The notes under the pieces are model-generated. The model ran no database searches. It worked only from the letters and a program-made list of their open reading frames with translations, and had not been told where the DNA came from. Of a stretch of DNA of 64,000 nt, positions 1 to 14,219 are shown one piece after another (within the stretch, counting starts at the first letter, position 1; each line of letters begins with the position of its first letter). The DNA is from Eledone cirrhosa (Eukaryota), in NCBI GenBank assembly GCA_964016885.1, contig OZ024740.1, positions 69,750,001 to 69,814,000 on the forward strand, in the 5' to 3' direction. Both the position numbers and the translations under genes were made by a program.

Positions 1-3000
1 GCCTCTCCTTCGTTTTTGAAGGGGGAGGCGGTTTGATCGTGACAATGTACTCAGTGGTCAACCGGATTGGTTACACCCGCGACAGTAGTCGTTCCACATA
101 GCCCCACAGGTCAGCGACGCCCGGGCAGTGTACGAATGCGTGCGCGACGGTTTCCACGTCACGCAAGCATCTCGAAGAGATCTTCTTCGAGGGGTCCCTA
201 CCCGGGCGCCCGTGTCTGTAGAGCTTATCCCGAACGGGTAGAGCTCCTCGGTAGCACTGCCAAGCCAGGGACTTTCGGAAGTTGTCCATCGGTCCCCGGG
301 CCAAACGTCCTACCGAACAGACTGGCTAGCTCGTCTTCCTCCATGCCCAGAGCCTCTCCGAGAGCATTGTCGCACTTGCTGCGCACCAACCCTCTATAGA
401 ATGTTGAGGTTGAGTCTCCACTGATTGTCGGATCCGCTTGCCAGAGGGCTGTGAGTGCCTGGGCACATCCAATGTGCCAGTTGCCCACTTTTCTCAGTCT
501 TTGCTTGACCCAGGATTGCAGCTCGGTGAGTGAGACAAGTCTCGCAAAGGCTCGCCTCACAAAAGGGGCACACACCGGATGAACGGTGAGGAATACCTGG
601 AGGTGCCGTAGTCTTAATGCGTGTTTACGCATCAGCAGTCACGGCAACCCCAGCCCTCCGTTCGAAGGGTGATGACAGCAGATGAATCTTCTCACCAAAG
701 GGCCCGCTTCTTCCAAAAGAATCGGAAGAGCGCGCGCTCCATTTTGGCGAGCATTTTCGCTGGGCAAGGCACGACGGTCAAGCGGTAGTAGATGACGGAC
801 GCGAAAAGTGTTCGCTACGACGGACGCGAAAAGTGTTCGCTACGACGGACGCGAAAAGTGTCCGCTCGACCTTTCAGGGATAGTTTGCACTCGACCCACT
901 TCTGAGTGAGTGCAAATACCCTGCCCGTTAACTCTTCCCAGTTTTTCTCCACCTGGAGGTCCGGTCCGAACCACCCCGAGCAGCTTCACCGGTCCCTCCG
1001 TCCAGCGTCCGACGACGCCGTCGGAGGGCATCGGTTTGCCTCTCCACGTTCCGAGTTGCAAACCGACGGACTTGTCCCGGTTCAGCTTGGCTCTTGTAAA
1101 CCTTTCGTATTCCTCCAGTAAGGTGCCGATCTGCCCGATTTCCTAGGCGCACGACACCATTACTGTCACGTCATCGGCGTAGGCCGAAACCGCTTTTCAC
1201 AATCCCGTTTCCAACGGGATTCCCTGAAACAGGTCCAACTCCCGCAGTAGTGGTTCGAGAGCCAGCACATACAGAAGGGAGGAGATAGGGCATCCCTGTG
1301 GGTTGGATCGCGCGATTTGGAACGGCTCCGAGAGGTAGCCGTTCACCTTAACCCTCGAGCAGGTGCTGCTGCTGTGCATTGCAGCAATCCAGCCCCTGAA
1401 AACAGGTCCGAAGCCTGCCGCTGCGAGCACCGTATTCACGTACCGATGGTCGACACTATCGAACGCCTTAGATTGATCCAAGTTCATCAGGGTCCCACGA
1501 AAGCCGGGTTCGTTCCCTACCCTCTCTACGATGTATCGCATGAGGTGGAAGTTGTCGTGTATGGACCTGGACGGGATTGCATTGTCTGCGCTTCTCCCAC
1601 CAGGGTCCCGACGACAAGCGCCAACCTCTTCCCTAACACCTTGGCCAAAAATCTTTAACTCTGTGTTAAGCAGAGTTATGGGCCTGAAGTTATCTATGTC
1701 ATCCCCTTTGTTCTCGTCCTTCCTCACCAGCGGGACTACGCCCTTGGTCACAGAACTGGGAATTCTCCCGTTCTGTTGCCAGTTGCAGTAGACCGCCTCG
1801 AGGAGATCGGAGAACAAGTCCGGCATCGCTACATAAAGTTGTATGGTAGACCATCGAGACCGGGAGATTTGCGTTTGCCGCATAGGCTCAGCGCTTCCTT
1901 TATTTCAGCGGCTGAAATCGGCCTTTCGCAGGACTTCGCTTCCCTGTCCGAGAGCCGCGGCAGACCGTCGAGGTATGGAGCGAAATCCTCACCCAGCTCG
2001 CCGCCCCACCCGAACAGTCGTGCAAAGCGCCGTTGAAAGGCCGCGCACATCCACTCAGGTTCAAGGATCACGCGTCCATCCTGGTCTTTCAAAGACCGAA
2101 TCGTGGACTTGTTTCTACTTTTTCCCTCTGTCACTCTGGCCCATCTAACAGCTTTGGCTCCCTCGTTACCCAGAGCACGTATTTTACTCCTGACAACACA
2201 GCCCTTGTGCTTCGCGTCAAAGAACTAGTCTAGGACCGTTCTCGACGCCAGCATGCCGGCGTCCTTTCCCCTCCTAATCGCCTCTTCTACTCTATCTATC
2301 AATTCCCTTTCAGGTCTATTCCTATCTGATGCTAATTCCTGACTAAAACCTATCGATTCTATTCTAATTTCTCTCTTGAGAGAGCCCCACCTGCTGTTGA
2401 CAATTTCCCCCGTCAACCGCAGCTTAACTAGAGTGCTAATCCGCTTACTGTAAGCTTTGTCTGTCGGTAAGGACAAGTTTAGCTTCCAGTAACCGCGTCC
2501 TTGTCTATGGGTTCTATCAAGGTTGACCACTCCGGTCACCAACTTGTGATCCGATTAGTCAACCATGAACATTCGTGGACAGCTTAATATGTCCCTATCC
2601 TTATTTCTAACCAGAACCTTATCTAGGTACGATCTAGATGTTCCGCTGCGATTACTCCACGTCCACAGTGGCACAGTCGTAAAATCTAGTCGATATCTAT
2701 CGGCCAGATCAAATCGGTTGATTAACTTTTTGATGCTGTTACACCCCCCTTTATCGGGTCATGCTCCCACATAGTGCCAACGTGCATCTAGGATTCCATT
2801 CCAGTCCCCCAATAAATGCAAGGAGCGGAACGTTCCCAGAAAAGTCTCTAGACGTTTGAAGATGTCTGGCCGTGGAGTCCCGATGGGGCATATGCGGCCA
2901 CCAGCCTGAAGGCTCCACCTTCACTATCATCAAGGTCTAGGACCACCAGTCGACCCTCCGAGTCCAGATGTACCGTCTGTGTTAGGAGGCCCAGGTGTTT

Positions 3001-3225
3001 CCTCAGCAAAACGGCAACCCTTCCCCCACCTCCCGGCTGACATGGAGATGCGTAGATCTCATAGTCTTCGAAGATGGGAGCCAGCTGTCGCTCGCTGTGG
3101 ATCCTTGACTCGCAGATGGCAATTACATCCATACTGTGCGACCTGAGGTCGTTTAAGTGTTTGCCCTGTTTCCAGGGCATCCCCAGGTCGCGCACATTCA
3201 CACAATCGACTCTTACATTCGCCAA
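1..3225 (-). pseudogene. ORF2 (APE endonuclease-reverse transcriptase) of copy A, multiply frameshifted
   Basis: ORF fragments 2848-3225, 2225-2542, 1829-2134, 1197-1883, 840-1061, 225-632 and 71-304 align colinearly with copy C ORF2. Confidence 0.9.
794..865. repeat. 25-bp tandem triplication inside copy A ORF2
   Basis: GACGGACGCGAAAAGTGTTCGCTAC starts at 794, 819 and 844 (third copy partial); copies C and D have a single copy. Confidence 0.9.
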
Positions 3226-3261
3226 GTCGGTGAGTAAGAGTTGGAAAAGAAGAGGAAGAGT

Positions 3262-12063: not shown

Positions 12064-12163
12064 TAGAGATAGATAGATAGATAGATAGATAGATAGATAG
12101 ATAGATAGATAGATAGATAGATAGATAGATAGATAGATAGATAGATAGATAGATAGATAGATA
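12064..12163. repeat. (GATA)n microsatellite
   Basis: GATA run between copies C and D. Confidence 0.98.
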
Positions 12164-14186
12164 TGTTTCTTTTATTTGCCACCAGGGCATCAAAAGTGGG
12201 ACAAGTACAATGGGGGGAGTTTACAAAACAAGACGTCCTCAATAAGGAGGAGGCAATAACAATATATAAAAATAAAATAAAATATAACAAAAAATAAAAT
12301 TTATAACAAAGTCCTCAATAGAGAGGAGGCGCCTTGGGGGGTCGCACACACCCCCGAAAAAAAGTGTGCAACCCTTCTCCTCAGGAGCACAGAGAAGGGG
12401 TGCTCCCTTGGTCTTTCATCTTCCTCACCTATAGTCTGATGTAGAGTGAAGGCCCATTCACACGGGCCATTCTCGCCACTTTCACCCATCTTTCATAGAA
12501 ACGGCTGGGGTGCAGCACCTCTCTCTCCATCCTGATCCTTCTTCCGAAATGATATCGGAAGAAACGGACCAGTTGTTGGCCAGAGAGAAAGGTGTCTGAC
12601 CTCAGTCCTTTCAGACGCGTCCACCATACAACCTCTTTCGCCATGGCTATTACGCACAGAAACACCGCCTCTCCTTCGTTTTTGAAGAGGGGAGGCGGCT
12701 TGATCGTTACAATAGACTCGGTGGTCAACCGGATTGGTCCCACCCTTGACAGCAGTTGTTCGACATAACCCCACAGATCGGCAATGCCCGAGCAGTTTAC
12801 CAATGCGTGTGCAACGGTTTCCTCGTCGCACACGCATCTGGGACAGATCTTTTTCGATGGGTCCCTACCCGGGCGCCCGTGTCTGTAGAGCCTTTCTCGA
12901 ACGGGCAGAGCCCTTCTGTAGCATTGCCAGGCCAGGGACCTCTGGAAGTTATCCATGGGTCCCGGGCTGAATGTCCTACCGAACAGGCTGGCCAGTTCGT
13001 CTTCCTCCATGCCAAGGGCTTCTCCGAGGGCGTCGTCGCACCTGCTAACCACCAGCCCTCTATAGAATGACGAGGTGGATTCTCCACTGACAGCCGGGTC
13101 CGCCTGCCAGAGAGACGTGAGTGCCTGGGCACACTCGGTGTGCCAGGCGCCCAGTTTTCTCGGTCTTTGCTTGACCCAGGATTGCAGCTCGGTGAGTGAG
13201 ACGAGTCTGGGAAAGGCTCGCCTCACAAACGGGGCCCACACCGGTTAACCGGAGAGGAATACCTGAAGGTGCCGTAGCCTTAATGCGTGTTTACGTATCA
13301 TTAGCCACGGCATCCCCAGCCCTCCTTTCGAAGGGTGTTGACAGCAGATGGATCTCCTCACCATAGGAGCCCGCTTCTTCCAAAGGAATTGGAAGAGTGC
13401 GCGCTCCAATTTGGCGAGCGTTTCCCTTGGGCAAGGCACAACGGTCAGGCGGTAGTAGATGACGGACGCTATATAAGTGTTCGCCACCTCCGCCCGTCCT
13501 TTCAGGGACAGTTTGCACTCGGCCCACTTCTGGGTCAGTGCAAACACCCAGTTCGTCACCTCACCCCAGTTCTTCTCCACCTGGAGGTCTGGTCCGAACC
13601 AGACCCCGAGCAACTTCACCGGGCCCTCCGTCCAGCGCCCGACGACGCCATCGGAGGGCATCGATCTGCTCCTCCACGTGCCGAGTTGCAGACCGATCGA
13701 CTTGTCCCGGTTCAGCTTAGCCCCTGTAAACCTTTCGTACTCATCCAGTAAGGTGCCGATCGCCCTGATTTCCGAGGCCGTCGACACCATTACTGTTACG
13801 TCATCGGCGTAGGCTGACACCGCTTTCCGCAATCCCGGTTCCAACGGGATGCCCTGCAACAACTCCAACTTCCGCAGCAGTGGCTCTAGAGTCATTACAT
13901 ACAGAAGGGAGGAGAGAGGGCACCCCTGTCGGATGGACCGCGCGATTTCGAACGGCTCCGAGAGGTAGCCGTTCACCTTGACCCTAGAGCAGATGCGGCT
14001 GCTGTGCATGGCATTGATCCAGCCCCTGAAAACGGGTCCGAAGCCTGCCGCCGCTAGCACCGCATCCAGGTAACCATGGTCGACCCTATCGAATGCCTTA
14101 GATTGATCCAAGTTGATCAGGGCCCCACCAAAGCCGGGTTCGTTCCCAACCCTCTCTATGATGTATCGCATGAGGTGGAGGTTATC
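12164..14186 (-). mobile_element. Tx1-like copy D, 5'-truncated within RT; close relative of copy C
   Basis: ORFs 13245-14171 (YADD) and 12429-13241 (zinc finger) are in the same frame, split by one TAA (CAA in copy C); 3' UTR is nearly the same as copy C. Confidence 0.93.
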
Positions 14187-14219
14187 GATAGATAGAAAGA
14201 TAGATAGATAGTTAGATAG
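14187..14219. repeat. Imperfect (GATA)n at the 5' junction of copy D
   Basis: GATAGATAGAAAGATAGATAGATAGTTAGATAG. Confidence 0.9.

Follow-up and report, generated by a model that had tools for sequence, protein, structure and literature searches.

Why should several copies of one kind of mobile element lie head-to-tail inside a single GATA microsatellite, and did they enter that repeat or write it themselves? The question is raised by the left end of a 64,000-nucleotide stretch of the Eledone cirrhosa genome (hereafter the window; assembly GCA_964016885.1, contig OZ024740.1, positions 69,750,001 to 69,814,000), where copies A to D of a long interspersed nuclear element (LINE) stand next to one another (Table 1). 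A sequence-only reading of the window had described four copies in one orientation, split by GATA arrays, and this was confirmed by their coordinates, all four lying on the minus strand. It had also described copies without poly(A) whose 3' ends run into TATC, and this was seen for copies C and D, which terminate in AATAAAAGAAACA, and for copy B, which terminates in AATAAAGAAA, with TATC directly after each. The four copies it counted are present, but they are the right end of a larger stack which extends left of the window and holds seven same-strand 3' ends with distinct terminal sequences in approximately 26 kb. We consider it very probable that the copies in this stack inserted separately, that they belong to a recently active lineage of Tx1-like LINEs and that they join one strand of the DNA at a short word, TAT(C/A)T, probably through nicking by the element's own apurinic/apyrimidinic-type endonuclease (APE). 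The window by itself could not exclude that the repeats are tails made by the element, because only one of its junctions, the 5' junction of copy D (14187-14219), is independent of a neighbour's 3' flank and so cannot be a neighbour's tail.

The junction word across the genome

Exact 3' ends of the type carried by copies C and D were found 2,619 times genome-wide, and in 2,467 of these one base is followed by TAT(C/A)T; 1,592 of the 2,619 continue with TATCTATC and 162 with TATATATA. Copies of the type of copy B end in a 22-mer that was counted 12,784 times genome-wide, and among its first 30 matches TAT(C/A)T lay within two bases in 26 and a TATC array in 18, with none on the opposite strand. 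A sample of 100 consecutive C/D-type copies from the start of contig C1, which were not selected by their flanks and whose 5' junctions were called against 22 full-length natural copies, had TAT at positions 1-3 after the 3' end and T at position 5 in every case, position 4 being C in 82, A in 17 and T in 1, so that TAT(C/A)T was present in 99 of the 100. At least three TATC units were present within 26 nt in 43 of the 100 3' flanks and 48 of the 100 5' flanks, compared to 0.06% of 17,042 background 26-mers (a conservative comparison, as the background contains one array of this stack); both counts lie above the level of >20% of flanks in one repeat type which is taken to mark target specificity in PMC4494074. 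None of the 100 copies stood in an opposite-strand array, and a related element lay within 400 nt downstream of 34 of them, on the same strand in 33.

The single-base register and the strand bias refute passive accumulation, in which copies would insert anywhere, survival or recombination would be favoured in microsatellites and the stack would grow by tandem duplication, and we assign it practically no probability. The genome is rich in microsatellites and one segmental-duplicate pair was present among the 100 copies, both of which would suit such a process, but the sampled copies are very young (median 98% identity to a full-length copy), the stack contains seven distinct 3' termini and the far commoner (TA)n is almost avoided. 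That the four copies of the window are independent insertions, as had been claimed from the sequence, was upheld by their differing levels of divergence: copies A, B and D are 81% (over open reading frame (ORF) 2), 74% (over the end of ORF2) and 93% identical to copy C, respectively.

It is a short word, approximately C|TAT(C/A)TAT, that is targeted, and not arrays in themselves. Of the 100 copies, 47 have no more than one perfect TATC unit at the 3' junction, 43 lie in (TATC)n proper and approximately 6% in (TA)n; other satellites and a dispersed repeat which hold the word were also used as insertion sites. The proposal of a (TATC)n-targeting Tx1 lineage had therefore to be narrowed: the element is Tx1-like and strand-specific, with TATC derived from the target on both flanks, but it is the short word that is targeted. 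Perfect (TATC)5 starts number 17,144 in the genome and those of (TA)10 number 2,695,161 (both strands), so that use per (TATC)n array is some 1,500-fold that per (TA)n array, a rough figure as the word lengths differ. Three independent insertions (L170, L175 and L230) appear to share one position (TATCTGTAACAC) within another dispersed repeat, which looks like a secondary hot spot containing the target word.

Target or tail, and the proposed mechanism

Were the repeats a self-made tail, the reverse transcriptase (RT) would write (TATC)n at the 3' end of copies inserted at otherwise random sites, and stacks would be secondary; tails made of repeats are known from some LINEs. In keeping with this, there is almost no variation in the five bases that follow the 3' end, and of 32 truncated copies in which a TATC array follows the 3' end, 6 show neither array type at their 5' end. 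Of the 93 starts of perfect (TATC)5 arrays along contig C1 to 38.95 Mb, moreover, 19 have a same-strand exact-match 3' end no more than 3 nt away, which is a lower bound on occupancy, and none lies near an opposite-strand 3' end. The sequence 3' of the element, though, differs from site to site, being a TA array, another satellite or unique DNA, and is matched by that on the 5' side, the two flank classes agreeing in 75 of the 100 copies against a mean of 40.7 after shuffling. The 5' flanks of full-length copies were set aside as evidence of targeting, as the element's own 5' end is TC/TATC-like. Among the 82 5'-truncated copies a TATC array stood at the 5' junction in 35, against the background of 0.06%, so that GATA at the 3' end only with random 5' flanks, which the sequence-only reading had set against its own proposal, is not the pattern found. 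Truncated copies with arrays on both sides comprised 25 with TATC/TATC, 7 with TA/TA and 3 mixed (Fisher P = 4e-5), and in 24 truncated copies the 5' TATC array is not the 3' flank of another copy. At clean sites the target duplication begins directly after the element with no units added, and the many copies with one TATC unit or none at the 3' junction likewise speak against a written tail. Since flank agreement, 5' arrays and duplications of the junction word are impossible for a tail written by the element, the self-made tail is largely refuted and we regard it as very improbable.

Non-periodic duplications of at least 8 bases were found at 20 of 42 non-array sites, compared to 2.6 for shuffled pairs, with one segmental duplicate dropped from the count; copies L176 and L177 (C1 108.72-108.74 Mb), which are 14 kb apart and have identical flanks, represent a segmental duplication after insertion. 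Of the non-periodic matches, 35 of 40 start at precisely the first base beyond the element, and the five shifted duplications are all in tandem satellites or in arrays with an ambiguous register. Thirteen clean sites gave target duplications of 8-18 bp starting at TAT(C/A)T. At 11 of the 13 the base immediately preceding the duplication was C, a base that is not duplicated and is not the element's last one. This C lies on the far side of the nick and points to protein recognition across it.

Several points weigh against insertion at a nuclease-chosen word. Neither array type was present at 39 of the 82 truncated 5' ends, and 22 of the 42 non-array sites had no duplication by the rule applied; some of these sites without array or duplication are probably mis-called junctions caused by nesting or subfamily switches. 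The 13 clean sites were picked by hand, and two of them fall at one and the same point in a dispersed repeat. Sampling of the 100 copies was confined to the first 119 Mb of a single contig and relied on an exact 30-mer, and arrays may have grown after insertion, which makes the per-array ratio rough.

In the mechanism that we propose, the APE endonuclease would nick the opposite (GATA) strand at 5'-A(G/T)ATA|G-3', where reverse transcription is likely primed, and a second nick 8-18 bases off would give rise to the target duplication. Target-primed reverse transcription with specificity set by the nuclease is likely, judging from these footprints and from established LINE biology (PMC1919474), and the endonuclease of Tx1L is reported to nick almost solely its own target in vitro (PMC1950540). 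A (TATC)n array offers the word every four bases and each insertion leaves the word on both sides; because the word persists in this way, the same array is re-entered on the same strand by different subfamilies, giving head-to-tail stacks. A transcript that reads through is likely, because an AATAAA signal lies only seven bases before the element's 3' end and no poly(A) is copied. Such a transcript would extend into the TATC flank of its donor copy and may pair there with the nicked primer, which would account for the lack of poly(A) and for the exact 3' end. Full-length copies begin with a TC-rich stretch (of 39 copies, 16 have TCTCTTTAC and 5 have TCTCTCTAC), and an extra 11-20 TATC/TC-like bases lie inside the duplication at several full-length sites that could be read; these may aid joining at the 5' end and seed new repeat units.

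Such pairing could itself set the specificity, a lax nuclease nicking AT-rich DNA and only those nicks which pair with UAUCU of the transcript being extended. The missing poly(A) fits this, as does conservation that is strongest at positions 1-7, on the primer side of the nick, and the extra bases of full-length copies suggest that transcripts likely carry the repeat. The preference for C on the nick's far side is, however, not accounted for by pairing, A at position 4 is tolerated in 17 of 100 copies within the stretch that would be paired, and no clear case of RNA-templated bases was found at the 3' junctions, even when shifted duplications were allowed. We therefore think selection by pairing unlikely, though it deserves more weight than the other alternatives, and favour choice of the word by the nuclease.

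The element may make its target as well as use it, with a large share of the genome's (GATA)n loci seeded or expanded in a self-feeding loop. Each insertion would duplicate a stretch led by TATCT, full-length copies would import TATC/TC bases from the transcript, and the transcript would pair with the repeat. The numbers that suggest this are the 17,144 (TATC)5 starts in 3.0 Gb, which make the repeat a rare one, against more than 15,000 exact-match 3' ends, and the proportion of arrays that abut one (at least 19 of 93); we nevertheless hold the loop to be doubtful.

Family identity and related elements

The element is a Tx1-like APE LINE, because its ORF2 scores higher to Xenopus Tx1L than to L1 and its APE catalytic columns (N, E, Y, D-N, D, D-H) are invariant with Tx1L in the alignment. 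A naturally open ORF2 from another locus encodes 1,145 amino acids, and its phmmer scores were 319 bits to Tx1L (YTX2; 29% identity over 930 amino acids), 166 bits to human L1 ORF2p and 55-70 bits to R2; the closest named protein among the matches listed is from Argonauta hians (63%). In a midpoint-rooted tree of 120 RT domains, drawn without an L1 outgroup or rows for Kibi, Koshi or Keno, four representatives of the element's own subfamilies (82-90% identical to one another) grouped with the Argonauta protein and a further protein that has no name (support 1.0). The sister group of this clade comprised 69 unnamed proteins, and Tx1L fell on a different branch.

ORF1 is 634 amino acids stop to stop in open copies and has one C-x2-C-x4-H-x4-C motif, a weak match to Pfam zf-CCHC (18.3 bits, under the 20.8 cut-off). 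The ORF2 pieces of copy C match Pfam Exo_endo_phos, RVT_1 and zf-RVT. The sequence-only reading had put copy C at about four lesions from intact and hence open to reconstruction; five coding lesions were counted (in ORF1 two stops plus one frameshift, in ORF2 one of each), and reconstruction is moot since both ORFs are open in 6 of 40 consecutive full-length copies drawn from 202 exact 5' ends. Judged by the divergence of its copies the family is young and recently active, and the element was found in all three contig sets examined. Copies L168, L088, L143 and L104 keep both ends and are without large internal parts (lengths of approximately 1.0 and 4.4 kb, for example), and are possible non-autonomous derivatives.

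Microsatellite targeting has been described before in the Tx1 clade, and only the target word TAT(C/A)T appears to be new. Kibi on (TC)n and Koshi on (TTC)n in teleosts, and crocodilian Tx1 families on (TTCC)n and (TTTC)n, are reported in PMC4494074 and PMC3812793, and likewise are Tx1-clade APE LINEs specific for microsatellites; their targets differ from the word used here, which lies in (TATC)n and weakly in (TA)n, and the hosts of Kibi and Koshi are teleosts where ours is an octopod. Tandem insertions with target sequence between them are described for SINEU-3/Tx1-Mar (PMC4494074 / PMC3812793). Tx1L of Xenopus laevis is the best functionally named relative, sharing the APE and RT motifs and having a sequence-specific endonuclease (PMC1950540, PMC1919474), but it hits one site in the Tx1D transposon, its ORF2 is 1,308 amino acids compared to approximately 1,145 here, and it lies on a separate branch of the RT tree. 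Waldo (ACAY), Mino (AC) and Dong (TAA) are also microsatellite-targeting non-LTR (long terminal repeat) elements, of other clades and with other repeat units (PMC3812793).

Recent octopod activity of Tx1-class LINEs is shared with Octopus vulgaris L1-Tx1 (PMC13282606, PMC8967140), for which 13 recently active families and 421 insertions are given (PMC13282606); the main texts of these two papers contain neither 'GATA' nor 'target site', and no target for the L1-Tx1 families was found in the portions covered. The portions of PMC7265360 and PMC10088271 covered by our search held nothing on a GATA or TATC target, and within the partial texts which that search covered no GATA- or TATC-targeting Tx1 was found, though Repbase, Dfam and the supplement of PMC4494074, which lay outside it, may name one.

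A relative with a B-type 3' end, L255 (C1:17,004,600-17,007,621; 69% protein identity over the end of ORF2), is followed by (ATT)n and not by TATC, and in L250 and L254 (TC)n follows the 3' end. Sister families may thus have other targets.

The apparently new word extends the targets listed for sequence-specific Tx1 elements and adds no new class of mechanism. The lineage provides an exceptionally large natural data set, with thousands of young insertions, several subfamilies and a sister on ATT repeats, which bears on whether APE LINEs choose microsatellites through the nuclease or through RNA pairing, a question described as poorly understood (PMC3812793). Octopod GATA markers often adjoin these elements, and insertion polymorphism is likely at such markers.

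The stack and the remainder of the window

The stack runs from approximately 11.8 kb left of the window to position 14,219, and it is a large yet typical case, stacking being the family's normal state. Its left limit is a (TATC)17 array with TGTC units added, its right limit a degenerate TATC run. Contig C1 from approximately 69,738,210 to 69,750,000 holds three more same-strand copies of other subfamilies and the 3' end of copy A, which is found approximately 476 nt before the window begins and runs into (TATC)13; the last array there ends in TGTC units. Copy A is 67% identical to copy C over part of ORF1, its ORF1 protein is approximately 41% identical to that of open C-type copies, and blastn found no match in it to the first 850 nt of copy C.

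Table 1. Features of the stack within the window (window positions)
Feature	Position	Strand	Description
Copy A	1..5587	-	Full-length-type, older subfamily; numerous stops and frameshifts; continues beyond the window
(GATA)4 spacer	5588..5604	.	Separates the 3' end of copy B from the 5' end of copy A
Copy B	5605..6136	-	5'-truncated, 532-nt 3' fragment of a different subfamily
(GATA)31 array	6137..6260	.	From the 3' end of copy C to the 5' junction of copy B
Copy C	6261..12066	-	Full-length, young, 5.8 kb; 98.8-98.9% identity to open-ORF copies
Copy C ORF2	6525..9963	-	APE endonuclease, RT and C-terminal zinc-binding domain; frameshift near 9120, stop near 7622
Copy C ORF1	9991..11899	-	One CCHC knuckle; stops near 11731 and 10447, frameshift near 10186
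(GATA)24 array	12067..12163	.	From the 3' end of copy D to the 5' end of copy C
Copy D	12164..14186	-	5' truncation inside the RT domain
Degenerate (GATA)8	14187..14219	.	Outer 5' flank of the stack; non-element DNA beyond

No further run of three or more GATA/TATC units was found in the rest of the window (50 kb). A short interspersed repeat (5037-5210, 24495-25029 and 26435-27131), which we take to resemble an octopod SINE-like (short interspersed nuclear element) sequence, is inserted in the ORF1 region of copy A and recurs elsewhere in the window as tandem units of 204-237 bp. Between 47175 and 51803 two very long (TA)n tracts (approximately 1.35 and 1.05 kb) flank a 442-bp unit which is repeated 3.5 times at 97% identity.

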